Below are positions 2,795-44,669 of a DNA stretch of 50,451 bases, piece by piece. The position numbers and the translations under genes were made by a program. Location of the stretch: positions 1-50,451 of the forward strand of contig CAZPBY010000012.1 of assembly GCA_964584785.1 (NCBI GenBank), written 5' to 3'. Source of the DNA: an uncultured Solibacteraceae bacterium (GTDB lineage: Bacteria; Acidobacteriota; Terriglobia; 20CM-2-55-15). The notes under the pieces were generated by a model, which had not been told where the DNA came from, did no database searches, and saw only the letters and a list, made by a program, of their open reading frames with translations. Within the stretch, counting starts at the first letter, position 1; each line of letters begins with the position of its first letter.

Positions 2795-3555
2795 CGAAAC
2801 CGCAAACAATCTGGGAACCGCCACTCGGCCTCGACCGCTTGCGGCCTCGCGACGTTCGTTTGACCGGCGAGGCGATTGCGCTGCTGGTCCTTGTTGGCGC
2901 GCTCTTGATCGGCGCAGTTGCTTCCCTTGTTCTTCTGACCGACGTCACGCGTGAACAGAATGAAGAACAGCGACTGCTTCGCGAAGAAGGGTCGGACGCC
3001 CAGGGCATCGTGACTCGACTCTGGCGGACGTCCGAGAAATCGAACCCGGGCTGGGCCTCGTACACCTTCACATCATCCAAAGATGGCGCGGTCCATGAAG
3101 GACGCTCTCGAATCCCCGTGCGGCTCTGGAACAGTTTGCGTACGGGATCCATGATTTCCATCCGCTTCGTCCCCACACGTCCGGAAATGAATCGTCCAGA
3201 AATGATCGAACGGAATCCCACACCCATCTGGGTCGCGCCGATGACGGCTGCCGCGCTCGCGGCTACTGCCGGCTTGCTGACGTTACCGCTGCGAAAACAG
3301 CGTTTTCTCCTGGTCGAAGGACGCCCGGCGCCAGGCCGGGTCACGGGTCTGAAGAAGACGGACAAGGGATCCATCGTTCAATTCGAGTATCAGGTTCTAA
3401 GCGGGGCGACGAGAAGCGGACGAAGCGGCCCGATGCGTAAGCCACCGGGCGTAGGATCGAATGTTGTTGTGATCTACGATCCCAATGATCCCGAACGTCA
3501 CGCCCTTTATCCGTTACGGTTGGTGAAGCTGACGAGCGAGCGCCCACTGAGATAG
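2791..3555 (+). CDS. DUF3592-like two-TM membrane protein (two repeats of a TM + beta-rich module)
   Basis: The ORF track extends it back to 2596, but the in-frame ATG at 2791 overlaps the Arc gene's stop. Two TM helices ([41 protein letters not shown]) each precede a beta-rich module ending in a DUF3592-like V.YDP..P motif ([15 protein letters not shown]). Confidence 0.55.
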
Positions 3556-3729
3556 CCGGGACTTTCGGAATTGTTTTACCTTTGAAGGCGAAGGCGGTTT
3601 GCTGGCCATTCGCGGGTTGAAAAGTGAAAGCAGCAGAATGCAACTCGAGATGCGCGATACCACAAATGTTCATCGGGCAGCGGATCATCATTATCCGAGG
3701 GAAGAATCAACCACTGGAATCCGCTCGAG

Positions 3730-4674
3730 CTATTCCGGATCGAATGGTTTTTCGGTAACCATCGCCAGCCAGGCTCGAGCGACCCGTTCGGTTGGAAGCC
3801 ACCCGGTAGCCTCTGTTCCGGTGGGCGCTCCTTCTGCAGGTCGAAAAGTCTTCGTTTTCAGATCGGCGATAAAGCCTGATTTCGCGTTTAACGGTTTGAG
3901 ATTTCCGCCGTCGAGACGCAGGCTGAGGACGTCTTCGTAAAGGATTCTGGCGACGTCGATCGACCGTCCAACCACATGCGCGACGGCTGATTCTTCCGCC
4001 AGTGCCCAAAGGGCGCCGGCGCGGCGATTCAGGTCGAAGAGGCCGGTGATGATGTGGACGCGTGAATCGAGATCTTTACCACCGATGAAAAGTATTCCCG
4101 GCACGTTGCGCGCAGCCTGCGAGGCCAGAGCGGTGTAGTAAATACCACCTTTATTCACGACAAACGCCAATACGCGCTCGGGCTTCCAGGCAACGAATTC
4201 ATAATTGAACTCGCCGCCGGCCGACATCCCCCACAGCAGCAACGGCGCTGTCGCAAGCTCGGGATGGTTGGAGCGTTCGGCAAACCTGTCCAGGGCCGTC
4301 AGCAGCGCCTGACCACTACCGCGGCTTACGTTGACGTAGTGTTCAATGAAGCTTTGGTCGTGCGCTTTATCTGTCAGGCGCACGCCGACCAAAGCGAGTC
4401 CGTGCCGGGTCGCGAAGGTCCGCCAGGTCTCGTCCTCAGCCATCGGACGGCCGTCGCCATTCGATCCGGGAACCAATATGAGCGCCGCCCGGACTGTTAG
4501 AACTTCCGGGGGCAGCCATAACCGGAACTCCGCCTTGTCGTAGTTTTCGCCGGGCGGGAGAGTTTGGTCGATCGACAATGCGCTCCCGGGAAGTCCCGCC
4601 GCGAACGAAACCGGCACCGCCCCAACCACCAGCATCACCAGTATTCCGAAACCCAACGCGTAGCTCGTCTTCAT
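3730..4674 (-). CDS. Secreted alpha/beta-hydrolase (esterase/peptidase-like)
   Basis: It has the GxSxG nucleophile elbow LWGMSAGGE. A signal peptide (MKTSYALGFGILVMLVVGAVPVSFAAG) begins at the internal Met at 4674, whereas the ORF track starts at 4713. Confidence 0.7.
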   Translation of the reverse strand: MKTSYALGFGILVMLVVGAVPVSFAAGLPGSALSIDQTLPPGENYDKAEFRLWLPPEVLTVRAALILVPGSNGDGRPMAEDETWRTFATRHGLALVGVRLTDKAHDQSFIEHYVNVSRGSGQALLTALDRFAERSNHPELATAPLLLWGMSAGGEFNYEFVAWKPERVLAFVVNKGGIYYTALASQAARNVPGILFIGGKDLDSRVHIITGLFDLNRRAGALWALAEESAVAHVVGRSIDVARILYEDVLSLRLDGGNLKPLNAKSGFIADLKTKTFRPAEGAPTGTEATGWLPTERVARAWLAMVTEKPFDPE

Positions 4675-4783
4675 TGATGCATCTCCCACTCCGGAGTCAG
4701 ACGATGTTATCAAATCCCCGGAAGCGTGGCAGCACTTAGCCTGTCGTCGGGCTATTTCAATTCTGTGTGAAGTATTCTCAGTC

Positions 4784-5944
4784 TTAGGAGCGTGTGAGAG
4801 AGGCCACGACCTGCTCGGCTACAAAATCGAGTTCGTCGTAGCCGATCGTCAGCGGGGGAAGAAAGCGCAGGACGGTACTGCCGGCGGGCATGGCGAGGAC
4901 GCCAAGGTCCATCAACTTCATCAGGTAAGGCTGGCCCTTTTCCTTGAGTTCGATCCCGACCATCAAGCCGAGGTGACGAATCTCGCGCACACTGTCGAAG
5001 GGATGCTCACGTAGCTTGCCCGTAAAGTAATCACCTTTCTGTTGCGCCTGCTTGTCGAGTTTGTTTTCCAGCATGAAGTCGATGGCCGCGCTCCCAGCGG
5101 CGCAAACAAGCGGATTGCCGCCAAACGTGCTGCCATGTTTGCCCATGGGGGGCTGAATCTTCTCCGAACAAACGGCAGCGCCCATTGGAAGGCCGCCGGC
5201 AATGGCCTTGGCAACGCACAGGATATCCGGCTCGAGGCCGAAGTGTTCGCACGCAAACATTCTGCCGGTGCGGCAGAAGCCGGTCTGAACTTCATCGATG
5301 ATCAATAAGAGATCCTTCTCGTCGCATAGTGTTCGGACCTGCCTGAAGTACTCGCCGCTTCCGACGTGCACGCCGCCCTCACCCTGAACGATTTCCAGAA
5401 TGATACCTGCAGTAGAGTCGTTTACCTTTTCCTGCAGCTTTTCGAAATTGTTGAATGGAACGTAAGTGAAACCGGGCACGACAGGTTCGAATTCCCTGCG
5501 ATATTCCGGATTGAATGTTGCGCTCATCGCGCCCATGGTACGGCCGTGGAAGCCGCGCATCGCACAGATGAACTCCGTTTTCCGGGTGGTGAAACGGGCG
5601 AACTTGATCGCGGCCTCAATGGTTTCCGTGCCGGAGTTGCACAGGAAAGCGCGCTTCAGGTTCCTCGGCGCAATGGACAAGAGTTTTTCCAGGAACGATG
5701 CCCGCGCATCGTTGTAGAGACTTGACGAGCAACTGATCAGGCGCCTTGCCTGCCGCTCCACTGCCGCTACGACGGTTTCATTGCCATGCCCAAGACTGGC
5801 CACACCGTGACCCGCAATGCAATCGATGTACTCGCGGCCGTTCTCGTCCCATACCTTCGCGTTCTTACCCCGCACGATCACGAGATCGCGCTTCGGGTAA
5901 ACGCTGAATTCGTACGCAGCTTCGAGTGCCTTGAAGTCCGTCAC
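4784..5944 (-). CDS. lysJ: Class III aminotransferase, acetylornithine / [LysW]-aminoadipate-semialdehyde aminotransferase
   Basis: It carries the PLP-enzyme motifs [20 protein letters not shown] and [11 protein letters not shown] (Lys). A GTG start overlaps the lysZ stop (GTGA), and it is the last gene of the lysW cluster. Confidence 0.85.
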
Positions 5945-6732
5945 TGAATAGTCGTCCCGTTTCCGGCAAGAGCATCGCGGATCGGGTGTTCCACCCTGCC
6001 GTCGCTGATGAAAATTCGGCTCGCGCCGTTGGCAGCGAGCCTTCGTAGGGCGAGCATCTTTCGTTTCATACGGCCTTCGACCTGAGCTTCCCGCAATTCC
6101 AGTTCTGCTTTAGAGATGTGCCGCACGAGAGAATCCGCGTTGTGAATATCGTCCATGAACCCCGGCGCCTCGATCAATTGGATGATCGTGCCCGCATGAA
6201 GGGTTTCCTGCAAGAGACTGACGATGTCGTCGTTTTCGGAATTAATCGCAGTGTTGTTTTCGTCGAGAATCGGGATGCAAAGCACCGGTATGTAGCCGTG
6301 GTCCAGCAACAGTGTGATCAGTTGGTGATTCACGCTTCTGGGCTTGCCGGAGTAGTCATGCATCATGATGGTCTTCTCGTTCTGGCGGACGCGGATGCCT
6401 TTGTTGCGGGCGCCTTGCACGATCTTGCCGTCGATTCCCGAGAGTCCGACCGCGTTGATGCCATATTGCTGGCACAGTTCGACGAGGCGCTTATTCTGAA
6501 GGCCGGCATAACCCATCATGATCGCATCGATGGCCTTCTCGTCCGTCAGTACGCTGCTGTAGCCGGACACCGACGTGACGGTTTTCGTCGGGTGTCCCAT
6601 CTTCGTCGCGATATCGTCGCGCACAGCATTCGCGCCGTGGACGATGATGTATTTTTCGTTCAGGCCCGCCAGATCCTGAACCACACCTTTCAAATTGACC
6701 TCTCTTCCGCCGCCGACTTTAACGATAATCAT
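5941..6732 (-). CDS. lysZ: Amino-acid kinase family, [LysW]-aminoadipate kinase / acetylglutamate kinase
   Basis: The N-terminus MIIVKVGGG and the motif IIVHGANAV match the ArgB/LysZ fold. Its start ATG overlaps the upstream gene's stop (ATGA). Confidence 0.85.
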   Translation of the reverse strand: MIIVKVGGGREVNLKGVVQDLAGLNEKYIIVHGANAVRDDIATKMGHPTKTVTSVSGYSSVLTDEKAIDAIMMGYAGLQNKRLVELCQQYGINAVGLSGIDGKIVQGARNKGIRVRQNEKTIMMHDYSGKPRSVNHQLITLLLDHGYIPVLCIPILDENNTAINSENDDIVSLLQETLHAGTIIQLIEAPGFMDDIHNADSLVRHISKAELELREAQVEGRMKRKMLALRRLAANGASRIFISDGRVEHPIRDALAGNGTTIQ

Positions 6733-7382
6733 CGCGCCCCCGACGTGATTCCGAACGACCGGAACGTTCCGCTCTCGATCTTCTCCCAGCGCTCCGGGCC
6801 TGGTAAGACTTCGGATGCGATCACCAGCCTCCCGCTGTCCGTGGTGAACTGCATGGTGAAATAGTCGGGGTCCTCGTTGAACAACGATGCGACGTAAACG
6901 GTCGACATGTCCGCCATAATGATGTTCATCGCTCGAATGTACGTGGTTCGTTTACGGATGACTTCCACGCCGCGCTCGAGAGCATCGATCATATCTCCGC
7001 GGTCGAAGCGCTTGATGAAGTTGAATATCTTCTCGGCACCGATCCTGCCTTTCTCCGAGATGCGCACTCCTCGAAGTTCGCCGTTGAAGATGAACACATG
7101 ACGATCGTCGTAGAAGGGCATGTTGTTCTCCACGGCAATGCCTTCGTCCTTGAACGCGCTCCGCGCGTGCGCCAGCAGGAGCCGGCTTTTTCCGAACTCA
7201 AAGCGGGATTCCCAGATCGGTTGAATGTTCTTGTAATGTTTCCACGCGCCGTCCTCGATGTACGCACAGCCCCAGCCGTGACCCTGAAATTCCCTGCTAT
7301 GTTTCGCGATGAAAGCGAGCCGCTCCAGTTGCTCCGCGACTGCAAATTCATGGTCGGACTTTACGAGCAGAAGCCGGCACAT
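6729..7382 (-). CDS. Class II glutamine amidotransferase-like Ntn hydrolase (GATase_4/YafJ type), embedded in the lysW cluster
   Basis: The N-terminal Met-Cys nucleophile (MCRLLLV), LAHARSAF, NNMPFY and FIFNGEL are all class II GATase hallmarks. It is coupled to argC upstream (1-nt gap) and to lysZ downstream (ATGA overlap). Confidence 0.75.
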   Translation of the reverse strand: MCRLLLVKSDHEFAVAEQLERLAFIAKHSREFQGHGWGCAYIEDGAWKHYKNIQPIWESRFEFGKSRLLLAHARSAFKDEGIAVENNMPFYDDRHVFIFNGELRGVRISEKGRIGAEKIFNFIKRFDRGDMIDALERGVEVIRKRTTYIRAMNIIMADMSTVYVASLFNEDPDYFTMQFTTDSGRLVIASEVLPGPERWEKIESGTFRSFGITSGAR

Positions 7383-7383
7383 T

Positions 7384-8448
7384 TTAAAGAGGATGAAGAC
7401 CGGGGAATTCCAGGCCCGCGGTTTCGTCGAATCCGTGCATCAGGTTGAACGCCTGGACCGCTTGACCGGCCGCGCCCTTCATCAAATTGTCGATGGCGCT
7501 GATGACGACAAGGCGATTCGATTTCTCGTCCCTCTGAAATCCGATATCGCAGTAGTTCGTGCCCGCAAGCCATTTGGGCTCCGGGTAACGGTACGTTCCT
7601 TCGGCTTCTTTAACGATCCGGATAAACGGCTCCTGACCGTAAACCTGCCGCAGGACTTTCCAGATGTCCTTGTCCGCCAGCTTGTCTTTCAAAAACACGT
7701 GAGACGTCGCGAGCGCACCGCGCACTAATTCAACTGAAGTGACCGACAGGTGAATCTGGATGGGGTTGCCGAAGCTTAATTCCTGCAGGACCTCGCCTGT
7801 GTGGCGATGCCCGGTAGGCATGAACGAACGCACGGCCCCACTGCGTTCCGGATGATGCGAGGAAGCGCTCGGTATATTGCCGCCTTCGCTCGACCCGACC
7901 TTGACTTCAACAACGGTGCGGTCCGGTTCAACGAGTCCGAGCTTATAAAAAGGATACAGCCCCAGGATGGTCGCGGTCGCGTTACAACCTGCACTGGATA
8001 CGAGATCGGCTCCTCTCATCTCATCTCGATGCAGTTCGGGTATGCCGTAAACAAACGTACCCAGAAGGTCGGGCCGTGCGTGGGGCTTGCCATACCAGTC
8101 CTTATAGGCAGTCTCGGTCCGCAAACGGAAGTCGGCGCTCAGATCGACGATTTTGCGGCCGACCGATTTGAAGAAATCGATCTTTCCCATGGCTTCGCCA
8201 TGCGGCAAGCAGCTGAACAGCACGTCGCACGAACGCAACTCGTCCAATTTCGAAAACTGCAGCTCGGTTTTCTTCCGCAGATTCGGGTGAGCCTTGAAAA
8301 CCAACTTGCCGGCCAGGCGCTCGGAAGTGACCTGCATTATTTCGACGCGCGGATGGCCCAGCAGCACTCGCAATAATTCGCCGCCGGTATAACCCGACCC
8401 GCCGGCTATGGCGCACTTTACTTTGTCCACCATGCTACTTTCCGGCAA
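7384..8448 (-). CDS. lysY: N-acetyl-gamma-glutamyl-phosphate / [LysW]-aminoadipyl-phosphate reductase
   Basis: It has the NAD(P) Rossmann motif [17 protein letters not shown] and the ArgC family fold, over 354 aa. Its start overlaps the lysX 3' end by 14 nt. Confidence 0.9.
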
Positions 8449-9283
8449 CCCGAAGCACGTAATCGACGATCATTTTCGGAATATCGACGCCGGTCGTGGT
8501 GATGCTGTTACGAAACTCCATGGTGTAGTTCACTTCGTTGACCTGGAGTCCGCGCTCGGTTTCGAAGATATCGATGGCGACAACTCCACCGCCCACAGCG
8601 TTTGCAGCTCGCACCGAAAGATCCTTCAGCTCGTTTGTCAACGGACAGTTGAATGCCTTGCCTCCCTGAGCGGTGTTCGTGATCCAGTGGTCCGAAACCC
8701 GATAGATGGCCGCGATGCATTCATCGCCGACGACGAAGCTTCGAATATCGCGCCCTTTTTTCTCGATGTATTTCTGAATGTAGAAAATCGAGTGATGGTA
8801 GCTTCCGAGCGTGACCTTGTGCTCGAGGATCGTTTCAGCAGCATCCCGATCATTGACCTTGGCGAGCAGCCTTCCCCACGAACCCACGGCCGGTTTCAGC
8901 ACGACCGGGTATCCCATCGCTTCGATGGCCTGCAGCGCCGATTCCTCCGTGAATGCGATCCGCACTTCCGGCTGCGGCACTTTGTGCTCTTCGAGCGCGA
9001 TCGACGTCAGCATCTTGTCGCCGCAGATCGTCGCGACGTGCGAAGTATTTACGCATTTCACTCCCGCCGATTCGAACAGTCGCAACGCGTGAAGCGCTCG
9101 AGAATGGTTGATGCATCTTTCCAGGACGACATCGAAAGGAAAGTGATCTCTGCCGAGGTTGAACGCCAGTTTCCGGTCGTCGAGCATCACGGTCTCAACG
9201 CCGCCACGACTCGCAAACTCCTTGAGGATGAATTTTTCCTCGGGACGAATGAGCGAGTGGAGAAAACCGACTTTGATGCTCAT
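8435..9283 (-). CDS. lysX: RimK/ATP-grasp ligase LysX (alpha-aminoadipate--LysW ligase)
   Basis: The ATP-grasp fold is evident ([41 protein letters not shown]). The true start is MSIKVGFLH at 9281-9283, with a GAGGAGG SD; the ORF track's extension to 9364 covers lysW. Its ATG overlaps the lysW stop (ATGA). Confidence 0.85.
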
Positions 9284-9444
9284 TGCCCCCAATCCTCCTC
9301 TTCGGTCGGGGCCTCGGCGAGTATCGCAGGATGGACCCCTTTGACTTCCAGTTCCGAACCGCATTCCTTGCAGGAAATGAGTTCTCCCACCACCGCATCG
9401 TCACCCAGGTTCACCGTGGCACCGCAAATGGGACACTCAGCCAT
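9280..9444 (-). CDS. lysW: Amino-group carrier protein LysW (54 aa, zinc ribbon plus acidic EDWGQ tail)
   Basis: Manual translation gives [54 protein letters not shown]. The CxxC...CxxC zinc ribbon and C-terminal EDWG tail are diagnostic of LysW. A GGAGGA SD sits upstream. The ORF is below the 60-aa cutoff of the supplied track. Confidence 0.85.
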
Positions 9445-9625
9445 TGTCGAATTCCTCCAGGTTCAATCAATCTCGCAAGACGTCAGCGCAGACTGTGAAG
9501 TTTAGCGTGAATAAGTCGAAGCCGTGTAGACTTTGAGCCGATGAGGCGGGCAGTCCCGTTGACCGCGCGGTTCTCTTACCAGCGTCCTTTTGTGGATCAC
9601 GGTCTGCGCATCCGGTCCCATTCAG

Positions 9626-10033
9626 CTACGTCGATGAACGATACCCCTTCAGCTCGATCGTATTGTGTTCAGGATCGTTCAAATAAACCGACGGTCCATT
9701 TCCTTCGGCGCCGTAATTGTCGTGAACGTTCCCGAGATCGATTCCGAATTGGTTGAAGTGGCGCCGGAGGCTGTCGATGTCGAAGGGTTCTATGCGAAGG
9801 CAAACGTGATCCATGTTATGGCCATCCGCAGCGGGAGCGGCGCCGCCCATCTTTCCGATCTCGCTATCGACGCTGACGAGGTCGATTAACTGCGAACCGG
9901 CACGAAGGTGTATCAGTCCGAGCCGCTCCACGCGTTTGTCCAGGGCGCAGCCGACGACGTCGCAATAAAACCGGGTCATCCGCTCCACGTCGCGGCATCG
10001 AATGACAATGTGGTCCAGGCCAATGATGTTCAT
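9626..10033 (-). CDS. VOC-family (glyoxalase/bleomycin-resistance/extradiol dioxygenase fold) protein
   Basis: The fold signature is MNIIGLDHIVIRCRDVERMTRFYCDVVGCAL ... NMDHVCLRIEPFD. The start is taken at the internal Met at 10033. Confidence 0.65.
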   Translation of the reverse strand: MNIIGLDHIVIRCRDVERMTRFYCDVVGCALDKRVERLGLIHLRAGSQLIDLVSVDSEIGKMGGAAPAADGHNMDHVCLRIEPFDIDSLRRHFNQFGIDLGNVHDNYGAEGNGPSVYLNDPEHNTIELKGYRSST

Positions 10034-10121
10034 GAACAATATTGTAGTAGCCCGAAATTCAAATGCTGTAACGTAACTGCCACCCAATTCGCTGGGTTAT
10101 TCATCAATAACGGCTGAACCC

Positions 10122-11918
10122 ATGGAGCAGCTGCGCCAACGTAAAGAGTGGAAATTCTTCGGTGTCTTGTGGAAGGCCCACGCCGGGCTTGCGTCCGTGT
10201 GGTGGCTGATTCTGTTCATGCGCGGCGTGCTGCCGGCGGTGCTGTCGATCGCCACCGGCCTGGTTATCCGAAATGTTCAGCAGAATGCCACTCTGACCGT
10301 GCCGCTGGTTTTTGCCGGAGCGGTGTTTCTGTTGCTGCAGATTCTCACGCCGCTTCATTTGGGTGTGGGGTCCAATCTCGGCGATCGAACGGCGTCGTGG
10401 CTTTACGACCGCCTCACCGAATCGTGCGTGCGGCCGCCCGGCATGGGACATCTCGAGGATCCCAAGCTGACAGGCGACCTGATGCTGGCGCGCGATTTCG
10501 ATCTGGCGATGATGGGACCACCCCTGTTTATATCGATGGATTTCATCGCAGGCGGACTGGTGGAAATGATCGGCGGTCTTGCCTCAGCTGTCGTGCTCGG
10601 CTGGTATCACTGGTGGGCTCCGATCCTTCTGGTCGGCGCCTGGTTCGCGACACATTGGCTTTTGCGTGAAAGCGCCGTGTGGCGCGACCGAAATACCGAT
10701 GAGGTGCGGGCGGCGCAACGCGAATCGGAATACGCGTATCGGATCGCAGTCGATCCGCCGGCTGCGAAGGAACTGAGACTGTTCGGCCTCGCCGGCTGGA
10801 TCATCGAGCGGTTCATCACACGGCGGACGCAGTTGCATAAACTGCAGTACGAAGCGACGCGGCTACGAGAGAAGCCGCTCGCGCTCAGCCTGCTGATCGT
10901 TGCTTCGGCGAATATCCTCTTGTTCTGGTCTATCGCAAACTCGGCGTCGACTGGAACCATCGCTCTCTCTCGGGCGATTGTTTTTGCGCAATGTGCGCTC
11001 GGGACGTCCATGATCGCGTTCGGTGGTCTGAATTGGGCTCTCGATTGGGCGGCTTCACCCGTCGGTGCGGTGCTGCGTCTCAAGGCATCGATGGATATCG
11101 CCGGCGCTTTGCATGCCGGGATCCGCGCGGCGGAGAAGATGCCCCGAAGCGAGATCCGTTTTCGCAACGTTACGTTTGCGTATCCGGGCGGCCAGGAAAT
11201 TCTGAAAGACTTCAACCTCACGATTCGCGCCGGCTCATCGCTCGCGATCGTCGGCAGAAACGGTGCAGGAAAGACGACGCTGGCGAAACTGCTTTGCCGG
11301 CTCTACGATCCGCAATCCGGCGCGATCGAAGTGGACGGCGTCGACATTCGAGAGTTGAATATCGAAAGCTGGCGGTCGCGGTTGGCCGCGGTGTTCCAGG
11401 ATTTCATTCGATTCGAACTCTCTCTTCGCGACAACGTGGCTCCGCAGGGCGCACCCGACGACGTGATTCAACGCGCGCTCGAATCCGCTCGAGCGGCAGG
11501 ACTGGCTCATCTGGACACCGTGCTGGCGCGCGGATACGACGGCGGGACCGATCTATCCGGCGGCCAGTGGCAGCGCGTCGCGTTGGCTCGGGCGCTGTGC
11601 GCGGTGGGCATGGGCGCTCGCGTGGTCCTTCTCGACGAGCCTACGGCTCAGCTCGACGTTCGAGGCGAATCGGAAATCTTCGACCGGCTTCTCGAAGCGA
11701 CGCGGAACTGCACCACGATTCTGATCTCGCATCGATTCTCGACCGTCCGGCATGCCGACCGGATCTGCGTTTTGGAAAACGGCTCAGTGACCGAACTCGG
11801 CACGCACGACGAATTGATGGCGCTCGGCGGACGGTATCGCACGATGTTCGATCTGCAGGCGCAGCGATTTGCGGCAACCGAAGACGAGGAAGGCAAAGCC
11901 TATGACGTCCTCGCCTAA
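10122..11918 (+). CDS. ABC exporter, fused permease + ATPase (subunit 1 of a heterodimer)
   Basis: A six-TM N-terminal domain is followed by Walker A GRNGAGKTTL, the signature LSGGQWQRVALARAL, Walker B VVLLDEPTAQLD and an H-loop SHRFST. Confidence 0.85.
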   Translation: MEQLRQRKEWKFFGVLWKAHAGLASVWWLILFMRGVLPAVLSIATGLVIRNVQQNATLTVPLVFAGAVFLLLQILTPLHLGVGSNLGDRTASWLYDRLTESCVRPPGMGHLEDPKLTGDLMLARDFDLAMMGPPLFISMDFIAGGLVEMIGGLASAVVLGWYHWWAPILLVGAWFATHWLLRESAVWRDRNTDEVRAAQRESEYAYRIAVDPPAAKELRLFGLAGWIIERFITRRTQLHKLQYEATRLREKPLALSLLIVASANILLFWSIANSASTGTIALSRAIVFAQCALGTSMIAFGGLNWALDWAASPVGAVLRLKASMDIAGALHAGIRAAEKMPRSEIRFRNVTFAYPGGQEILKDFNLTIRAGSSLAIVGRNGAGKTTLAKLLCRLYDPQSGAIEVDGVDIRELNIESWRSRLAAVFQDFIRFELSLRDNVAPQGAPDDVIQRALESARAAGLAHLDTVLARGYDGGTDLSGGQWQRVALARALCAVGMGARVVLLDEPTAQLDVRGESEIFDRLLEATRNCTTILISHRFSTVRHADRICVLENGSVTELGTHDELMALGGRYRTMFDLQAQRFAATEDEEGKAYDVLA

Positions 11919-13719
11919 GCCGGCTTCACGTAAAGTCATAGACGACCTGCCGCCGGCCCTGTCTTCGATGTGGCGACTGTGCAAACTCGGTTACCGCCAC
12001 GAGCCGGGAATGCTGCTGGCGTCATTTCTCATGTCTCTCTTTGCAGCCGTTCCCGACACCCTCACCGCCGTCTGGCTCGTCGTCCTTGGAAACGGCGTGC
12101 TGCAGCACAATCGAACGCGCGTGCTTGCCGCGGCGATAGCAATCGGTCTCTCGGCGACGGGCACATGGTTCCTGCGAATCGCCACTATGCGCGTGCAGCG
12201 CCGTTTTCGCGATAAGGTGACGATTGCTCTCGAGTCGCACGTTGCAAGACTCCAGGCGTCGACGGCGACCATCGAACATCACGAACGTCCCGAGTATCTC
12301 GACCGGCTCGCGATGCTGCGCAATCAGGTGTTCGTGCTGGATCACATGTATTTGTCGTTGTTCTCGACATGCGCATGGATACTCCGTCTCGCGATCGTGA
12401 TCGTGTTGCTGGTATCGATTCATCCCGGTCTGATCCTTCTGGCCGTATTCGGCGTCCCCGTTTTCTGGACTTCCGCGTGGCGTCCGGCCGTGGAGCGAAA
12501 AGCCTGGGAGAGCCGCGCTTGGGCACACCGTCTGGCGCGGCATCTGTTCGTCACCGCGACGACGGCGGCTTCCGGCAAGGAAGTGCGGGTCACCGGAATT
12601 GGTGAGCGTTTGATCGTCGATCGACGGTCGGCGTGGGAATGGTGGTATGCGGGCGTCTCCAGGGCCCGATGGGATACGGCCCGCTGGCACGCACTCGCAT
12701 GGGCCGTTTTCGGCAGCGCCTACATTGGAGCTGTTGTTTTTGTCGCCGCCGTATTGCACGCTTCCGCCGGCAACGTTCTGCTTGTCCTCGCAGCGGGCGC
12801 GCGGCTATCGGCTTACATCGGAGGCACTGTCGGCGAGATCGGATTCCTGCGTGGTATCTGGATGGATGGTTCGAAGCGGCTCGCCTGGCTCGAGAATTAC
12901 GTCGCCTCTCTGAGCGCTGCGGCGGATCTGCCGGTGCCGACGCGTCTCGCGAAAGGGATTCGTCTGGCCAATGTGTCCTTCGCTTATCCCGGCATCGATC
13001 GACTGGTTCTCAACGACGTGTCGCTGGATCTTCCCGCCGGTTCCGTTGTGGCGATCGTTGGCGAAAACGGAGCCGGCAAAACGACGCTGGTGAAGTTGCT
13101 CGGCAAGTTCTACGAACCGACGACGGGGACGATCTACGTCGACGACCAGCCGCTCGCACGCATACCCGCCGAAGGCTGGCGACAGCGTATTGCCGGCGCC
13201 TTTCAGGATTTTTTCCGTTTTGAATTGCGCGCGCGGCAAAGCATCGGCGTTGGTGACCTCCCGCATCTGGACGACACCGTTGCCGTCACGACCGCTGTGG
13301 ATCGCGCCGGGGCCGCCGACGTTGTGGCCAGATTGCCCGTCGGCCTGGATACGCAATTAGGTCCGACGTGGCCTCAAGGTGTCGAGGTTTCGTTTGGACA
13401 ATGGCAAAAAGTCGCGCTCGCCCGCGGCTTCATGCGCGAACAACCGCTGCTCATCGTTCTCGACGAACCGACCGCGGCTCTCGATGCGGAAACCGAACAC
13501 GCCCTGTTCGAACGATACGCCGAAGCGGCGCACGGCAACAAAAGCGCGGGCCGCATCACGATTCTCGTGTCCCACCGGTTCAGCACGGTCCGCATGGCCG
13601 ACCTCATCATCGTTCTCGACGGCTCACGCGTCGCCGAAGTGGGAACCCACCAAGAGTTAATGGCTCGTCGCGGCCCTTACTCCGAGCTGTACGGCATTCA
13701 GGCCGCGGCGTATCAGTGA
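11902..13719 (+). CDS. ABC exporter, fused permease + ATPase (subunit 2, degenerate signature)
   Basis: The ATG at 11902 is preceded by a GAGGAAGG SD and overlaps the subunit 1 stop by 17 nt. It has Walker A GENGAGKTTL, a degenerate signature VSFGQWQKVALARGF, and Walker B LIVLDEPTAALD. Confidence 0.85.
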   Translation: MTSSPKPASRKVIDDLPPALSSMWRLCKLGYRHEPGMLLASFLMSLFAAVPDTLTAVWLVVLGNGVLQHNRTRVLAAAIAIGLSATGTWFLRIATMRVQRRFRDKVTIALESHVARLQASTATIEHHERPEYLDRLAMLRNQVFVLDHMYLSLFSTCAWILRLAIVIVLLVSIHPGLILLAVFGVPVFWTSAWRPAVERKAWESRAWAHRLARHLFVTATTAASGKEVRVTGIGERLIVDRRSAWEWWYAGVSRARWDTARWHALAWAVFGSAYIGAVVFVAAVLHASAGNVLLVLAAGARLSAYIGGTVGEIGFLRGIWMDGSKRLAWLENYVASLSAAADLPVPTRLAKGIRLANVSFAYPGIDRLVLNDVSLDLPAGSVVAIVGENGAGKTTLVKLLGKFYEPTTGTIYVDDQPLARIPAEGWRQRIAGAFQDFFRFELRARQSIGVGDLPHLDDTVAVTTAVDRAGAADVVARLPVGLDTQLGPTWPQGVEVSFGQWQKVALARGFMREQPLLIVLDEPTAALDAETEHALFERYAEAAHGNKSAGRITILVSHRFSTVRMADLIIVLDGSRVAEVGTHQELMARRGPYSELYGIQAAAYQ

Positions 13720-14324
13720 GCGGGCGCCGGAGACCCCGTGACGGACACACCGAGGTCGCGCAACAGGCCGTTCCCAATCGAGTAAATCCAGCCGTGAATG
13801 CTGATGCTCTGCCCTCGAGCCCAGGCATCGCGAAGAGTGCTCGTCCGTCCGACATTGAACACCTGGGCTTGGACATTCAGCTCGCACAGGCGATTGAAAC
13901 GGCCGTCGCGATCGAGTTCGCCGAGTTCGCGCTGATGCTGATCATGCAAGTCGCGGACGGGCTTCAACCAGTTGTCGCTGAGTCCGAGCTTGCGGCCGTC
14001 CAGCGCGGCTTCGACGCCACCGCATCCATAATGGCCGCAGACGATGATGTGCCGTACCCGGAGCACATCCACGGCGAATTGAATGACGGAGAGGCAGTTG
14101 AGGTCGTCTAGCCCGACGACATTCGACACGTTGCGGTGAACGAAAAGCTCGCCGGGCAGCAACCCCACGATTTCGTTTGCGGGCACTCGACTGTCGGCAC
14201 AGCCAATCCACAAATACTTCGGCGTCTGCTGGCGGGAAAGCCTGAGGAAAAACTCGGGGTCCTTCGCCGTCATTCGTTCGACCCAGCGTCGATTGTTGTC
14301 GAAGAGTCCGTTCAATTCATCCAT
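13713..14324 (-). CDS. can: Beta-class carbonic anhydrase
   Basis: The zinc-ligand motifs are LWIGCADSRVP (CxDxR) and IIVCGHYGCGG (HxxC). The start is taken at MDELNGLF (14322-14324), which aligns with the E. coli Can N-terminus and avoids overlap with the upstream lipoprotein gene. Confidence 0.8.
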   Translation of the reverse strand: MDELNGLFDNNRRWVERMTAKDPEFFLRLSRQQTPKYLWIGCADSRVPANEIVGLLPGELFVHRNVSNVVGLDDLNCLSVIQFAVDVLRVRHIIVCGHYGCGGVEAALDGRKLGLSDNWLKPVRDLHDQHQRELGELDRDGRFNRLCELNVQAQVFNVGRTSTLRDAWARGQSISIHGWIYSIGNGLLRDLGVSVTGSPAPAH

Positions 14325-14340
14325 ACCGTTGGCGCATGGA

Positions 14341-14811
14341 TCAATTCTGCCGTTTAGCCACGACCGGATCTTCGCGACGGCCGTCAATGGTCGACTGTTC
14401 CATCAGGTCGCGATCGGGAGTCAGAGAGTAAATCATGGTGAGGGTCGTGCCACCGGCCGCTTTTGCGTCAACCTGTATTGTGGCGCCCACCACTCGCGCT
14501 GAGGTCTCGTATTGATCCTTGTCGCCGAACCATGGGCCATCGTCCTGAACTTTTCCATTCAGTTTGAGGGCGTGTTGCTCGGAGGTGACCGCGCCCAGGT
14601 ACCCGCTTTTCCGGATCATGGTGATGCGATCGCATCCACTCTGTTCGACAGAGATATGAACCTGTCCGTCTTCACCCTGAATCATGTAGTTTCCCGAGAG
14701 ATTCGCGCAGTCCGATCGGCCGCCCGCGGCATCCTTTCCGATTTTCGAGCAGCACGCAAGCGCAGCGGCCGTCGCCAGGAGTGCGATCCATCGAAGTCGA
14801 ATCCGCTTCAT
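14341..14811 (-). CDS. Hypothetical secreted protein / possible lipoprotein
   Basis: The signal peptide MKRIRLRWIALLATAAALACCSK has Cys directly after the hydrophobic core, and the protein has no recognisable domain. It sits 16 nt upstream of the carbonic anhydrase on the same strand. Confidence 0.5.
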   Translation of the reverse strand: MKRIRLRWIALLATAAALACCSKIGKDAAGGRSDCANLSGNYMIQGEDGQVHISVEQSGCDRITMIRKSGYLGAVTSEQHALKLNGKVQDDGPWFGDKDQYETSARVVGATIQVDAKAAGGTTLTMIYSLTPDRDLMEQSTIDGRREDPVVAKRQN

Positions 14812-24953: not shown

Positions 24954-26771
24954 ATGCGAACAATTCCAATTGCCCTTTTGATGCTCGTGACGCTGTCGGC
25001 CTGTACGACGAACAGCAGCGGTGTCACTGCCAATCCGACCGCGGCTGACGCCGGGAAATTCATTAATGAAGTCAACCAGACGATCGAACGTCTGGCGACA
25101 GCGAGTTCGCAAGCCTCGTGGGTCGCCGAAAACTTCATCACCGACGACACGCAGGCGATCAATGCGCGGGAAAACCAGCGGTTCATCGATCAGATCGCGA
25201 AATATGCGAAGGAGGCGGTGAAGTACGACAAAGTCGACGTGCCGCCGGATATTCGACGCCAGCTCAACCTGTTAAAAAATTCGCTGACGATGGCGACGCC
25301 TTCGGATCCGAAGGAAGGCGAAGAACTGACCAGGATCGCCGCAAGCCTCGACGCCACGTACGGCAAAGGCAAATGGTGCGAAGACAATCCCGGCAAGCCC
25401 GAAACATGTCACGACATCGACAAGATCACCAACATCATGGCCGACACGAAGACCGACGAGAAGCGTTTGCGGCAGGTGTGGGAAGGCTGGCAGACGATCG
25501 CCCAGCCGATGCGAAAGGACTACACCCGCTTCGTCGAACTTTCGAACAAGGGCGCCAGGGAATTGGGATTCGTCGACACCGGCGCCATGTGGCGGTCGAA
25601 ATACGACATGACGCCGGAAGAGTTCACGAAGGAACTCGATCGCCTGTGGGAGCAGGTGAAGCCGTTCTATCTGTCGCTCCACGCGTACGTCCGCATGAAG
25701 CTTCACGACAAGTACGGCGACATCGTTCCGGCGAACGGCCCCATCCCTGCACACCTCCTGGGGAACATCTGGGCGCAACAGTGGGGCAACATTTACCCGC
25801 TCGTCAAACCCGCGAACGCCGATGCCGGCTATTCGCTCACGGACATTTTGAAGCGGCGCAACACCAAACCCCTCGATATGGTCCGAATCGGCGAGCGGTT
25901 CTACACATCCCTGGGTTTTGCCCCGCTGCCGCCGACATTCTTTGAACGATCGTTGCTTGTGCGTCCTCGCGACCGCGACGTGGTCTGCCATGCGAGCGCC
26001 TGGGACATCGATAACGTCGACGACCTGCGCATCAAGATGTGCATCGAGCCGAAGGAAGAAGACTTCGACACGATCCATCACGAACTCGGGCACAACTTCT
26101 ATCAACGCGCTTATAACAAATTGCCGATGATGTTCCGGGACAGCGCGAACGACGGCTTCCACGAAGCGATCGGCGACACGATTGCGCTGTCGGTGACGCC
26201 GGAGTATCTCGTCAAAATCGGCCTGCTCGACAAGGCGCCCGATCAATCGCGCGACATCGGCCTGCTGCTGACACGCGCGCTCGACAAAATCGCGTTCCTT
26301 CCCTTCGGTCTGCTGATCGATCAGTGGCGTTGGAAGGTTTTTTCGGGAGAAGTGAAACCGGAGGACTACAACAAAGCCTGGTGGGATCTGCGGCTGAAGT
26401 ATCAGGGCGTCGCTCCGCCGTCAAATCGGGCTGAGGAGTTCTTCGATCCGGGGGCCAAATACCATGTGCCGGGCAACGTGCCGTACACGCGTTATTTTCT
26501 CGCGGACATCCTGCAGTTCCAGTTTCATCGAGCGCTTGCCAAGACCGCTGGTTGCACCACCGCTCTTCACCGATGCTCGATCTACGAGAGCAAGGAAGCC
26601 GGTGCGAAACTGAACGCGATGCTGTCGATGGGCGTTTCCAAGCCGTGGCCCGAGGCACTCGAAGCCATTGCGGGGACTCGTCAGATGGATGCGACGGCAA
26701 TCACCGACTATTTCGCGCCGCTGAAAGCCTGGATGGACGAGCAGACCAAAGGGAAACCCGTCGGTTGGTAA
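24954..26771 (+). CDS. Peptidase M2 (angiotensin-converting-enzyme-like peptidyl-dipeptidase) lipoprotein
   Basis: The zinc motif is HHELGHNFYQ...HEAIGDT (HExxH + E, with the spacing of M2/ACE). The signal peptide has a lipobox, MRTIPIALLMLVTLSAC. Confidence 0.8.
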   Translation: MRTIPIALLMLVTLSACTTNSSGVTANPTAADAGKFINEVNQTIERLATASSQASWVAENFITDDTQAINARENQRFIDQIAKYAKEAVKYDKVDVPPDIRRQLNLLKNSLTMATPSDPKEGEELTRIAASLDATYGKGKWCEDNPGKPETCHDIDKITNIMADTKTDEKRLRQVWEGWQTIAQPMRKDYTRFVELSNKGARELGFVDTGAMWRSKYDMTPEEFTKELDRLWEQVKPFYLSLHAYVRMKLHDKYGDIVPANGPIPAHLLGNIWAQQWGNIYPLVKPANADAGYSLTDILKRRNTKPLDMVRIGERFYTSLGFAPLPPTFFERSLLVRPRDRDVVCHASAWDIDNVDDLRIKMCIEPKEEDFDTIHHELGHNFYQRAYNKLPMMFRDSANDGFHEAIGDTIALSVTPEYLVKIGLLDKAPDQSRDIGLLLTRALDKIAFLPFGLLIDQWRWKVFSGEVKPEDYNKAWWDLRLKYQGVAPPSNRAEEFFDPGAKYHVPGNVPYTRYFLADILQFQFHRALAKTAGCTTALHRCSIYESKEAGAKLNAMLSMGVSKPWPEALEAIAGTRQMDATAITDYFAPLKAWMDEQTKGKPVGW

Positions 26772-32055: not shown

Positions 32056-34521
32056 CTACGACGGAAGGTAGTGCAAAAGTTTCAAAATATCCGAAAACAC
32101 TCCCATGGCGGTGACGTCCGCGCCGGCGCCGGGACCCTGCACAACGAGCGGTGTGTTGTGATAACGCTCGGTGGTGAACACGATGATGTTGTCGCTGCCT
32201 TTGGTGGACGCCAGAGAATGCGAATACGGAACTTCTTTCAAACCCGCAGAGCCGATACCATCCGAAAGACTGCCGATGTAGCGCAACACCATGTTCCGTG
32301 AACTCGCCGCCGCCGATCGTCGACGCATATCGGAATCGAACGAAGCCAGCTTGTCGAAGAAATCGCTCGAGAACGCGCCGCCGCGCAGTTTCCTGGGGAC
32401 TAGGCTCTCGACTCGAATATCTTCGAGTTCCATTTTCGCGCCGAGCTGCCTCGCCAGTATCAGCAGCTTTCGACCGACGTCGATTCCCGACAGATCGTCG
32501 CGCGGATCCGGCTCGGTGTAGCCCTTCAAATGGGCGTCGCGCACCAGTTCGCTGAAACGGCGCGTTCCATCGTAATTATTGAAGAGGTAACTCATCGTGC
32601 CGGAAAAGATCCCGTCGATCCGGTGGATGGTGTCGCCGCTCGAAATCAAATCCTTCAGCGTCGAGATGATCGGAAGACCCGCGCCCACATTGGCCTCGTA
32701 GAGAAAATGCTTCTGCCGTCTCCGGAGCAGATCCACCAGTTCCCGGTAGCTCTCCCAAGGCAACACGTTCGCTTTCTTGTTTGGCGTGACGATGTGCATG
32801 TTGGCTTTCACGAAGCCGGGATAGGAGCTCACAATTTCCGGACTCGCCGTGCAATCGACCAGCGCAACGTTGGTCAGGTCCATCTTCGCCACTTCGTCCG
32901 CCAGAGTTTGCGAGCTGAAGGATTGCTTGCTCTTTGCAAACTCTTCCCTCCAGCCTTGCAGATTGACGCCGTCGCGCTTCAGCAGAAGTTGTTTGCGGTT
33001 CGCAATACCGCAAACTCGAACGTCGAAAGCCTGCGCGCGAAGGAACGCCTGCTGCTGATCGAGCTGTTTCAACAGCGCCGCTCCGATGTTTCCGATGCCG
33101 ACCACAAAGAGAGCCAGATGTTTCCGCTTTTCGAAGAACGCTTCATGGATAACGTTCAGCGCGCGGGTTCTGTTCCGGGCGTCAACCACAAGCGAGATGT
33201 TGAGTTCGGACGCTCCCTGCGCGATCGCATCGACGTTGATATTATTCCTTCCGAGCGCCTGAAAGACGCTCCCCGCAACACCGGGCGTTCCCTTCATGCC
33301 TTCACCGACAATGGCCACGATGGTTTGCGACGGCTTCTCATCCAGCGACGTCAGCGCATGTTGAAGCTCGTAGCGGAATTCATGCTGGATCGCACGACGC
33401 GCGCGCCCGACGTCCGGCGAGTTCACCGCGAAGCAGATGGTGTGCTCGGACGACGCCTGGGAAATCAGAATGACGTTGACCTGATTCGATGCCAGTGAGC
33501 GAAACAGCCGTTCGGCGGTACCGGGCACGCCGACCATACTCATGCCGCGCAGCGTCAGGAGGGTGATGTCGTCGACTGCGGTAATTCCTTTCGCCACGAT
33601 GTACCGTTCGTCGACCTGCTTCGAGATCATCGTCCCGGGCGTGGACGGGTTCATCGTGTTCTTGATGAGTATCGGGATGTTCTTCGCCACAGCGGGAGCG
33701 ATCGTGGACGAGTGAAGAACCTTTGCGCCGAAATAAGACAATTCCATCGCCTCTTCGTACGAAAGCCTGGGCTGAACGAACGCGGCCGGAACCGCGCGCG
33801 GATCGGCGCTGTACACGCCATCGACGTCGGTCCAGATTTCGATCACGGATGCGTCGAGAGCCGCGCCGACAATCGCCGCGGAATAATCCGAACCGTTGCG
33901 GCCGATCGTCGTGGTTCGTCCGTCGGCCGTGCGCGCGATGAAGCCGGTCACGATCGGTATGGTGTTCCTGTTCGCTCGATCAAAATGTTTTTTGAAATAA
34001 GTCTGAATGGCTTTGTTGGTCTGATCGAACTGCACGGCCGCATGCGTGAACTGATCGTCGGTGATAATGATGTCGCGAGAGTCGACATACTCCGCGGGGT
34101 TCTTCGACCGCAGGTAAGAGGCGATGGTTATTGCGGAGAGGCGCTCGCCGAAACTTCCAACAATGTCCAGAGCGCTCGGAGGACAGTCGCGCAGAAGGTA
34201 AATTCCCTGCAGGACATTCCGCAACTCCTGCAGCTCCGATTCAATTCGGGCGCGAGTTTCACGGCCCGCAGGCCTCTTATCGTGAAGAGACTTCACTGCA
34301 TCGATGTGGCGCTGGAGCAGTTTGTCGTAGCCTTTGGTGTAGTCCGCGTCTCCGGAAGCCGCTCGCTGCGCACATTCGAGCAGCTGATTCGTAATACCCT
34401 GAAAGGCAGACACCACGACCGCGACGCGTTCTTTTTTTGCGGCCTGAAGCACGATGGCGCAAACGTCACGGATACGGCCGGGAGTGGATACCGAAGAACC
34501 GCCGAACTTGAGGACTCGCAT
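32056..34521 (-). CDS. thrA: Bifunctional aspartokinase / homoserine dehydrogenase
   Basis: The N-terminal aspartokinase motif MRVLKFGGSSV and ACT region are followed by a C-terminal homoserine dehydrogenase domain (VVGIGNIGAALLKQL...GAGLPIISTL). The start is taken at the Met at 34519-34521. Confidence 0.88.
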   Translation of the reverse strand: MRVLKFGGSSVSTPGRIRDVCAIVLQAAKKERVAVVVSAFQGITNQLLECAQRAASGDADYTKGYDKLLQRHIDAVKSLHDKRPAGRETRARIESELQELRNVLQGIYLLRDCPPSALDIVGSFGERLSAITIASYLRSKNPAEYVDSRDIIITDDQFTHAAVQFDQTNKAIQTYFKKHFDRANRNTIPIVTGFIARTADGRTTTIGRNGSDYSAAIVGAALDASVIEIWTDVDGVYSADPRAVPAAFVQPRLSYEEAMELSYFGAKVLHSSTIAPAVAKNIPILIKNTMNPSTPGTMISKQVDERYIVAKGITAVDDITLLTLRGMSMVGVPGTAERLFRSLASNQVNVILISQASSEHTICFAVNSPDVGRARRAIQHEFRYELQHALTSLDEKPSQTIVAIVGEGMKGTPGVAGSVFQALGRNNINVDAIAQGASELNISLVVDARNRTRALNVIHEAFFEKRKHLALFVVGIGNIGAALLKQLDQQQAFLRAQAFDVRVCGIANRKQLLLKRDGVNLQGWREEFAKSKQSFSSQTLADEVAKMDLTNVALVDCTASPEIVSSYPGFVKANMHIVTPNKKANVLPWESYRELVDLLRRRQKHFLYEANVGAGLPIISTLKDLISSGDTIHRIDGIFSGTMSYLFNNYDGTRRFSELVRDAHLKGYTEPDPRDDLSGIDVGRKLLILARQLGAKMELEDIRVESLVPRKLRGGAFSSDFFDKLASFDSDMRRRSAAASSRNMVLRYIGSLSDGIGSAGLKEVPYSHSLASTKGSDNIIVFTTERYHNTPLVVQGPGAGADVTAMGVFSDILKLLHYLPS

Positions 34522-42371: not shown

Positions 42372-42400
42372 GAGCGATCCTCCCCAAGAAGGCCAGATTA

Positions 42401-42490: not shown

Positions 42491-42494
42491 CCTT

Positions 42495-44660: not shown

Positions 44661-44669
44661 GGAGTGAAC

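Follow-up and report, generated by a model that had tools for sequence, protein, structure and literature searches.

A conserved Ntn hydrolase of LysW operons is a candidate [LysW]-lysine hydrolase and LysW deamidase

How is lysine released from the carrier protein LysW in operons that contain no gene for LysK, the M20 metallo-enzyme that normally performs this final step of the pathway? The question is raised by a locus in DNA from an uncultured Solibacteraceae bacterium (the window, a stretch of 50,451 nucleotides analysed over its whole length), in which an additional gene sits between lysY and lysZ. This gene encodes a 217-residue protein resembling class II glutamine amidotransferases (GATases) and is here labelled NTN. 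Analysis of the sequence and its open reading frames gave the order lysW-lysX-lysY-NTN-lysZ-lysJ on the minus strand; profile matches confirmed this order, which had been proposed in a sequence-only reading of the same DNA. The lysW gene (9280..9444) encodes a carrier protein of 54 residues, with a zinc ribbon and an acidic tail, and matches TIGR01206 with 62.2 bits (cut-off 53.2) and the Pfam family Zn_ribbon_LysW (PF21344) with 59 bits. By family match, the product of lysX (8435..9283; TIGR02144 LysX_arch, 355.5 bits, cut-off 275.6; Pfam LysX_preATP_grasp and RimK) is the ATP-grasp ligase that joins α-aminoadipate (or glutamate) to the C-terminal γ-carboxyl of LysW. The [LysW]-aminoadipyl-phosphate reductase is encoded by lysY (7384..8433; argC family, TIGR01850, 383 bits) and the [LysW]-aminoadipate kinase by lysZ (5941..6732; NF010659, 243.3 bits, cut-off 223); each of LysX, LysY and LysZ scores above the curated threshold of its own model. 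The operon ends with lysJ (4784..5944; Pfam Aminotran_3, 364 bits), which is assigned to the [LysW]-aminoadipate-semialdehyde aminotransferase. Its top NCBIfam match is LysJ_Th_th at 440 bits, under the cut-off of 700 for that model; the protein scores below both LysJ-specific models and is accepted only by TIGR00707, the general argD model (425 bits, cut-off 410).

The genes are tightly packed. An ATGA overlap joins lysW to lysX and another joins NTN (6729..7382) to lysZ, with the lysZ ATG lying on the NTN stop codon; the lysJ GTG likewise lies on the lysZ stop (GTGA), and lysY and NTN are separated by one nucleotide (TAA-A-ATG). These junctions were confirmed from the sequence as originally read. 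Between lysX and lysY a 14-nt overlap, with a TTG start at 8448, had been suggested. The ATG at 8433 is the more likely start, because on L081, an independent but identical contig, lysY is called with a product of 349 residues; the junction then becomes TAG-C-ATG with a 1-nt gap. The earlier view that the extra gene truly belongs to the operon and is expressed with it was right. The gene downstream of the operon (3730-4713) has an N-terminal hydrophobic segment and no Pfam match, and is not kept beside the operon in other genomes.

LysX, LysZ, LysY and LysJ together cover all the carrier-bound steps except release, a step that published genome analyses have left open. Pfam analysis of all 36 large open reading frames in the 50-kb window found no Peptidase_M20 (LysK) gene, and phmmer searches of the window with two LysK proteins returned nothing at E ≤ 1, in agreement with the sequence-only reading. 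The search was extended to around 1.97 Mb of loci (about 200, each ±10 kb), where no LysK-like reading frame was found at E ≤ 1 except in two control operons; as a positive control, the two LysK queries recover each other at E 1e-75. In the canonical operon L083 an M20 lysK directly follows lysJ. Two control LysW operons, L204 and L205, have neither lysK nor NTN locally, so an unlinked M20 LysK/ArgE is conceivable, and this observation counts against NTN as a replacement for LysK. Genes for homocitrate synthase, homoaconitase and homoisocitrate dehydrogenase are also absent from the 50-kb window. A homocitrate-synthase-like gene (HMGL-like plus HCS_D2) is embedded in 53 of 80 related operons, and in operons of a second NTN clade (clade B), which indicates that the product is lysine.

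NTN is a single-domain protein with the four-layer Ntn fold, and it scores above the Pfam gathering cut-off for GATase_4 (PF13230, 26.1 bits, cut-off 23). Its N-terminus reads MCRLL. At least 90% of 47 homologues have Met1 and Cys2, and clade B keeps both; Cys2 (TGC codon, 7377..7379, minus strand) is the predicted N-terminal nucleophile after removal of Met1. This conservation settles an earlier worry that the N-terminus had been mis-called: the start is correct. The motifs MC-, HARSA, NNMPF and FNGEL, picked out when the sequence was first read, are all present and are invariant or nearly so among the 47 homologues. The top structural match and the best sequence-profile match of NTN are both to EgtC, the Ntn amidohydrolase of the ergothioneine pathway. 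Arg74 of NTN, at the place of the arginine that binds the substrate α-carboxylate, is invariant and aligns with Arg88 of EgtC and, in a short local match, with Arg73 of GlmS; the oxyanion-hole residues Asn100-Gly101, also invariant, align with Asn114-Gly115 of EgtC. For the α-amino-binding Asp133 of EgtC, hhalign and MAFFT give different NTN columns, neither of them Asp, and the alignment is ambiguous at this point. NTN is not itself EgtC: it scores 39.7 bits against a cut-off of 218.65 (TIGR03442) and lies in a LysW operon, with no egt genes near it. NTN carries no fused synthase or acceptor domain and none is encoded nearby, the neighbours being the standard Lys enzymes.

The conservation of this arrangement was assessed in 80 loci from species-representative genomes, whose record titles span about ten phyla. 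NTN is followed by lysZ in 75 of 75 loci and preceded by lysY in 70 of 73, and each of the 51 loci with enough flanking sequence has the full set of five lys genes. NTN is thus a fixed member of the operon and not a strain-specific insertion, and the synteny check proposed with the original reading comes out in favour of a conserved GATase-like gene. The titles name Binatia/'Deltaproteobacteria', Ignavibacteriota, Bacteroidota, Calditrichota, Chlorobiota, Rhodothermaceae, Planctomycetota, Thermodesulfobacteriota, Deferribacteres and a gammaproteobacterium. In the first NTN clade (clade A) every locus examined lies in a LysW operon; in L008 and L031 a block of NTN-lysZ(-lysJ) stands apart from lysWXY. 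Clade B, at 33-34% identity, is found in Patescibacteria and Aminicenantales, and four of its five examined loci are LysW operons. In these four (L095; L126, Levybacteria; L207, Aminicenantales; L209, Shapirobacteria) NTN directly follows lysJ, the slot that lysK occupies in canonical operons. The fifth homologue (L208, Caldilineaceae) is outside any LysW operon, an observation that counts against the function proposed below. No link between an NTN-type hydrolase and LysW operons was found in the literature searched, which accords with the previous description of the arrangement as undescribed.

A second feature of the locus, missed in the sequence-only reading, is the C-terminus of LysW itself. 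The protein in the window ends ...TEEEDWGQ, with Gln54 (CAA codon, 9283..9285, minus strand) in place of the canonical Glu, and the same protein is encoded on the independent contig L081. Canonical LysW is loaded through the γ-carboxyl of the residue at this position, and all three solved LysW structures end EDWGE. Among NTN-type genome loci LysW ends in Gln in 13 of 62 cases and in Glu in 49 (about 79%), whereas all 86 intact Thermus-type LysW proteins, a control set in which the operon context of four was examined, end in Glu (Fisher p = 2e-6). Scanning metagenomes for a DNA pattern encoding EEDWGQ-stop identified 72 loci with Gln-terminated LysW, 22 of them with at least 3.3 kb of downstream sequence. 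NTN is present in 21 of the 22; in the remaining one the sequence ends before the expected NTN position, so that all 21 informative operons have NTN. These metagenomic loci contain no M20 gene. In the sets examined, Gln-terminated LysW is therefore associated exclusively with NTN. In a tree built for 81 NTN operons, Glu and Gln changed places at least 15 times, which fits near-neutral change where a γ-amidase is always present.

From this context we infer the substrate of NTN and two reactions: it probably hydrolyses the γ-amide on the C-terminal residue of LysW, both releasing lysine and deamidating Gln-terminated LysW. Removal of Met1 would expose Cys2 as the N-terminal nucleophile, and Arg74 would grip the free α-carboxylate of the terminal residue of LysW. 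The Cys2 thiol would then attack the γ-carbonyl, with Asn100 and Gly101 stabilising the oxyanion; the amine would depart, and hydrolysis of the γ-glutamyl thioester would restore LysW-Glu. With L-lysine as leaving group the reaction would be the last step of the pathway, making NTN a non-homologous replacement for LysK. With ammonia as leaving group, newly made Gln-terminated LysW would be turned into its Glu form, ready for loading by LysX, which would explain the occurrence of Gln-terminated LysW. The release role is supported by the EgtC fold, the absence of a synthase partner, the location of clade B in the lysK slot and the co-occurrence with Gln-terminated LysW. EgtC and glutaminases bind γ-glutamyl groups with a free α-amino group; the terminal residue of LysW is N-acylated by the rest of the protein, a difference that counts against the proposal.

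It is unlikely that NTN merely deamidates Gln-terminated LysW to the Glu form while an unlinked M20 LysK/ArgE frees lysine. Such an arrangement would suit the finding of Gln-terminated LysW solely with NTN, operons such as L204 and L205 that keep their release enzyme elsewhere, and the paper on Caldithrix, which describes further homologues of the pathway as dispersed over the genome. Yet the 49 of 62 NTN-type operons that already encode Glu-terminated LysW need no maturation and all retain NTN, and both the placement of clade-B NTN in the lysK slot and the absence of a LysK-like gene from some 200 loci, each covering ±10 kb, argue against it. We give a slim chance to the idea that NTN is an editing hydrolase, stripping misloaded amino acids (for example Glu in place of α-aminoadipate) or dead-end adducts from LysW. 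Editing and release share the same bond chemistry, and LysX-family ligases and the downstream enzymes are promiscuous between Glu and α-aminoadipate (PMC12998189). Editing would, however, leave the release step of NTN operons without an enzyme, would need an added deamidase activity of NTN to account for the link to Gln-terminated LysW, and is a function that canonical LysK-type operons (L083) do without.

A true glutamine amidotransferase, supplying ammonia to or amidating a carrier-bound intermediate on the way to a non-lysine product, is very improbable, even though NTN has the class II GATase fold and all the glutaminase catalytic residues. In Streptomyces, carriers of the LysW type serve in the synthesis of secondary metabolites. 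LysZ, LysY and LysJ are all kept in the NTN operons, however, so transamination already provides the side-chain amino group; NTN comes with neither a synthase nor an acceptor domain, the homocitrate synthase in the operons indicates lysine, and EgtC, the characterised stand-alone relative, is a hydrolase. Furthermore, the operon is a core-genome feature in many phyla, reduced CPR genomes included, and does not lie in biosynthetic gene clusters. Of the two roles offered by the sequence-only reading, release or hydrolysis thus gains from the EgtC fold, the lysK slot and Gln-terminated LysW, while amidation of a carrier-bound intermediate is not supported: LysZ, LysY and LysJ are retained, an acceptor domain is missing, and the embedded homocitrate synthase genes suggest ordinary lysine and not a new metabolite. 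That NTN is unrelated to LysW and simply carried in the operon is scarcely credible, since its position and translational coupling are conserved across about ten phyla and two clades and, although L208 lies outside a LysW operon and NTN-lysZ(-lysJ) is split from lysWXY in L008 and L031, NTN still sits beside lysZ or lysJ in the split loci.

Among known systems, LysK (M20, ArgE/DapE family; Thermus, Sulfolobus, Thermococcus) catalyses the reaction proposed for NTN, hydrolysis of the isopeptide between the γ-carboxyl of the C-terminal Glu of LysW and the α-amino group of lysine, and its slot after lysJ is the one also held by clade-B NTN. The folds are unrelated: LysK is a di-metal M20 enzyme, whereas NTN has no Peptidase_M20 domain and is a Cys Ntn hydrolase that would work through a thioester. 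No LysW ending in Gln turned up in the sets of LysK-type and Thermus-type sequences that were inspected. EgtC (PDB 4ZFJ, 4ZFK, 4ZFL), at about 20% identity to NTN, also cleaves a γ-glutamyl amide; the Glu of its substrate has a free α-amino group, whereas the terminal residue of LysW is part of a protein. Dug3p of the yeast glutathione degradosome participates in cleavage of the γ-glutamyl bond of glutathione. Dug3p and the GATase_4/YafJ-type structures 3MDN and 1TE5 belong to the same Pfam family as NTN but are distant and differ in substrate; DUG3 has been called a class II GATase (PMC12653102), and no function has been assigned to the YafJ-type structures from bacteria.

The logic of the scheme proposed for NTN and LysW resembles that of Pup and Dop. 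Pup is a small protein ligated through the γ-carboxyl of its C-terminal Glu; some lineages encode Gln, which is deamidated first, and others encode Glu. In the Pup-proteasome system a single enzyme, Dop, deamidates the Gln form and cuts the γ-isopeptide. Dop has the glutamine-synthetase fold, binds ATP and is a homologue of the ligase PafA, whereas NTN belongs to the Ntn hydrolases and is not related to LysX, the ligase of its pathway; the conjugate of LysW is the α-amine of a free amino acid, that of Pup a protein lysine.

On balance, we favour NTN as a previously unrecognised enzyme family, spread over some ten or more phyla with CPR bacteria among them, that would free lysine from LysW in a second form of the carrier-protein pathway that does without LysK, and would also deamidate the pro-carrier, thereby activating Gln-terminated LysW. 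If this is correct, the system would be convergent with Dop and Pup, and an apparent gap in lysine synthesis would be filled in many bacterial phyla; many genomes scored as being without a complete lysine pathway would in fact belong to prototrophs.

Six closely spaced genes fill positions 4784-9444 on the minus strand of the window: lysW (9280-9444), the lysine carrier gene and first in the operon, lysX (8435-9283), lysY/argC (7384-8433), a GATase_4-like gene encoding a class II amidotransferase-like protein of 217 aa, here called NTN (6729-7382), lysZ (5941-6732) and lysJ (4784-5944). ORF reading and Pfam confirmed this order, with its embedded gene and no local M20 gene, as the sequence-only reading had described it. 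The lysW/lysX and NTN/lysZ junctions are ATGA overlaps and lysZ/lysJ a GTGA overlap; lysX/lysY reads TAG-C-ATG and lysY/NTN TAA-A-ATG. The 14-nt lysX/lysY overlap proposed earlier rests on a TTG start at 8448, and is replaced by a 1-nt gap when the ATG at 8433 is used, the start assigned on an independent contig of identical sequence. In Pfam scans, none of the 36 large window ORFs matched Peptidase_M20, homocitrate synthase (HCS) or homoaconitase. Scanning the window plus four related loci with Rfam revealed neither a lysine riboswitch nor any other family, and a sigma-70 promoter/terminator scan of 3500-10300 gave no signal above shuffled expectation. The gene at 3730-4713 was rejected as a candidate for the release enzyme: its N-terminus is signal-like, it matches no family and it is not conserved beside other operons. 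This agrees with the earlier judgement that the hydrolase-like downstream neighbour is an unlikely substitute for LysK, the M20 metallo-enzyme that usually frees lysine from LysW.

Elsewhere in the window, a bifunctional aspartokinase/homoserine dehydrogenase with two ACT domains was identified by Pfam (32056-34545, minus strand). The aspartate-family branch exists in this organism, which has no bearing on the DAP route to lysine. Adjoining plus-strand genes encode subunits B and A of topoisomerase VI (34770-36758 and 36803-37936; Pfam Topo-VIb_trans, TP6A_N and TOP6A Toprim), an archaeal/eukaryotic-type enzyme uncommon among bacteria. A full-length Peptidase_M2 of the angiotensin-converting-enzyme family, with a signal-like N-terminus, lies at 24954-26771 on the plus strand (745 bits); the peptidases further downstream are GGT (38180-40078), penicillin amidase (40161-42566), S9 (42495-44660) and M49 (44664-46355).

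The protein collection contains over 3,000 homologues of NTN, none annotated more precisely than ‘glutamine amidotransferase’ or ‘hypothetical’. Scanning species-representative genomes, one per species, gave 138 relatives, and loci were retrieved for the best 80. Synteny across phyla, the check proposed from the sequence alone, identified the gene as a constant operon member: among these best 80, lysZ directly follows NTN in 75/75 loci, lysY lies upstream in 70/73, and the 51/51 loci with sufficient flank carry the full set of five lys genes. The loci are labelled Binatia/‘Deltaproteobacteria’, Ignavibacteriota (including the isolates Melioribacter sp. OK-6-Me and Rosettibacter primus), Bacteroidota, Calditrichota, Chlorobiota, Rhodothermaceae, Planctomycetota, Thermodesulfobacteriota, Deferribacteres and an Ectothiorhodospiraceae MAG. 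An HCS-like gene (HMGL-like plus HCS_D2) sits between lysW and lysX in 53 of the 80, which assigns the NTN operon to the alpha-aminoadipate lysine route. A few genomes have the operon split, with NTN-lysZ-lysJ (L008, 2345-4907) or NTN-lysJ (L031, 6093-7531) apart from lysW-lysX-lysY; NTN then remains with the downstream genes. In another (L035, 3299-4486) a second lysX paralogue between lysY and NTN suggests dual Lys/Arg use.

The N-terminal half of NTN matches Pfam GATase_4, barely over the cut-off. In NCBIfam (June 2026) there is no model for the family, and the sole match is EgtC, the ergothioneine-pathway Ntn amidohydrolase, with a score far under the cut-off. A PDB search with the single NTN sequence likewise returned only a weak EgtC match (E 0.07), which made it necessary to use a family profile and a structure model. 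With hhalign the NTN profile matches EgtC at 95% probability, pairing R74 with R88 and N100-G101 with N114-G115; the match to the GlmS glutaminase domain is local and covers 33 columns only. The AlphaFold model is confident (pLDDT 87.6, pTM 0.88); its top structural match is EgtC, followed by the GlmS and PurF glutaminase domains and by 3MDN and 1TE5, YafJ-type proteins with no assigned function. Homologues vary little or not at all at Cys2, Arg74 (HARSA), Asn100-Gly101 (FNGEL) and several further motifs. EgtC is not a glutamine-dependent amidotransferase but an Ntn enzyme that works on its own, splitting a gamma-glutamyl amide to an amino-acid derivative; NTN, like EgtC, lacks a synthase domain or partner. 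With a median pI of 7.7 NTN is close to neutral, against 5.1 for EgtC, which is suggestive of binding to the acidic LysW and not decisive. Loss of the alpha-amino-binding Asp, which would suit a protein-bound substrate, was dropped as an argument because the alignments disagree there.

A divergent clade of NTN (clade B, as distinct from the window type, clade A) keeps these residues and occupies a different position. The metagenome operons L095 and L126, from the scan selecting a Gln-terminated LysW tail, are ordered lysW-lysX-lysY-(HCS)-lysZ-lysJ-NTN; their NTN proteins are 33-34% identical to that of the window. The L126 protein retrieved 356 relatives, all named ‘hypothetical’; their taxon labels are Levybacteria, Gottesmanbacteria, Shapirobacteria, Microgenomates, Aminicenantales and Caldilineaceae. 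The NTN-last order recurs in two of the three clade B contexts looked up (Aminicenantales L207 and Shapirobacteria L209); the third, L208, is outside any LysW operon. At L208 (7527-8666; Caldilineaceae, in a record listed as 14.3 Mb) the homologue directly follows a GNAT acetyltransferase gene, and its substrate may be another gamma-glutamyl or N-acyl compound. Complete lysW-X-Y-HCS-Z-J-NTN or lysW-X-Y-Z-J-NTN operons in CPR Shapirobacteria (L209, 2706-8666) and Levybacteria (L126, 4699-9349) are unexpected, since these lineages are generally portrayed as devoid of amino-acid biosynthesis. In the canonical Gemmatimonadota control L083 lysJ is followed by the gene for the M20 enzyme LysK, and a second control, L206, also has an M20 gene within the LysW operon. 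The L083 operon also carries hisS between lysY and lysZ (13153-14412). The two control LysK proteins match each other at E 1e-75; used as queries against every ORF of the window and of 210 loci (1.97 Mb), they gave no other match at E<=1. A local M20 gene is also missing from two control LysW operons that have no NTN (L204 and L205), thus local absence alone is no proof that a genome lacks LysK.

In the characterised system the C-terminal Glu of LysW provides the gamma-carboxyl to which LysX ligates the substrate. E53 of LysW from T. kodakarensis was shown to be attached to AAA (PMC12998189), and all three solved LysW structures have the tail EDWGE. The window LysW ends EEEDWGQ. Gln in that position offers no gamma-carboxylate, and such a carrier cannot be loaded without prior deamidation. 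Among NTN-type genome loci LysW ends in Gln in 13/62 and Glu in 49/62, whereas 86 of 91 Thermus-type homologues end EDWGE and none in Gln, the remainder being truncated or erroneous (Fisher p = 2e-6 for the Gln excess). Representatives of LysW 50%-identity clusters (n = 150) include 104 DWGE and 11 DWGQ. Metagenome contigs were then scanned for DNA encoding EEDWGQ-stop, a selection on the tail alone, and 72 of 120 pattern-matched loci held a true Gln-terminated LysW. NTN is present in 21 of the 22 such loci with at least 3.3 kb downstream and in 15/15 with at least 4.5 kb; none of the 22 has an M20 gene. The sole exception (L148) ends inside lysZ, in a clade-B-like arrangement where NTN would come later. 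Both LysW ends occur in both clades, and a neighbour-joining tree built on the LysX+LysY+NTN sequences of 81 operons, a sample enriched for Gln, requires at least 15 Glu/Gln swaps. The simplest reading is that NTN operons always hold an enzyme able to hydrolyse the LysW terminal gamma-amide, which would render the single-base GAA/CAA change nearly neutral. Many Deinococcus/Trueperaceae-type LysW (P0178-P0210) lack all four zinc-ribbon cysteines (MLETIETPYG...) and keep the EDWGE tail, thus the zinc ribbon is dispensable in that lineage.

From the observed context, conservation, fold, catalytic residues and Gln association, we infer that NTN probably hydrolyses the gamma-amide on the C-terminal residue of LysW. 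Its Cys would form a thioester during hydrolysis. With lysine as leaving group NTN would stand in place of LysK; with ammonia, it would serve to activate LysW that ends in Gln. The proposal would parallel the logic of the Pup system, in which mycobacterial Pup has a C-terminal Gln, Pup of other actinobacteria has a C-terminal Glu, and a single enzyme, Dop, catalyses both the deamidation of Pup and the cleavage of its gamma-isopeptide. A deamidase serving maturation only, beside an unlinked LysK, would account for the Gln tails, but leaves unexplained why NTN is retained in the 79% of operons with Glu-LysW, and we consider it improbable. An editing hydrolase is somewhat less probable again, as the release step would be left without an enzyme. 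Amidation of a new product, suggested earlier, is very unlikely: NTN has no acceptor domain, LysZ, LysY and LysJ are all retained, and HCS lies within operons. That NTN is a hitch-hiker gene is contradicted by synteny across phyla and is scarcely credible.

To our knowledge, no enzyme other than the M20 ArgE type has been described for the release step of LysW pathways. A full-text search of an incomplete library found no paper linking LysW or ‘amino-group carrier protein’ with amidotransferase, Ntn, EgtC or YafJ, and within the same scope ‘[LysW]-lysine hydrolase’ literature was found for Deinococcus-Thermus and Streptomyces only. The Melioribacter genome paper makes no statement on lysine. 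The proposal is a version of the known LysW pathway with a putative non-homologous release enzyme and a putative Gln-terminated pro-carrier. If correct, this would close the pathway hole behind incomplete-lysine or auxotrophy calls such as that for Caldithrix abyssi, where a ‘LysWXZYJ and Hcs’ locus was reported with a remark on possible non-orthologous displacement (PMC5317091). Ignavibacterium album, judged unable to make lysine (PMC3362086), would be a further candidate case. Automated pathway calls would improve for Ignavibacteriota, Calditrichota, Binatia, Aminicenantales and Patescibacteria, and the more than 3,000 homologues would gain a function. A Gln-terminated carrier requiring activation would be a second, independent case of the Pup/Dop logic.
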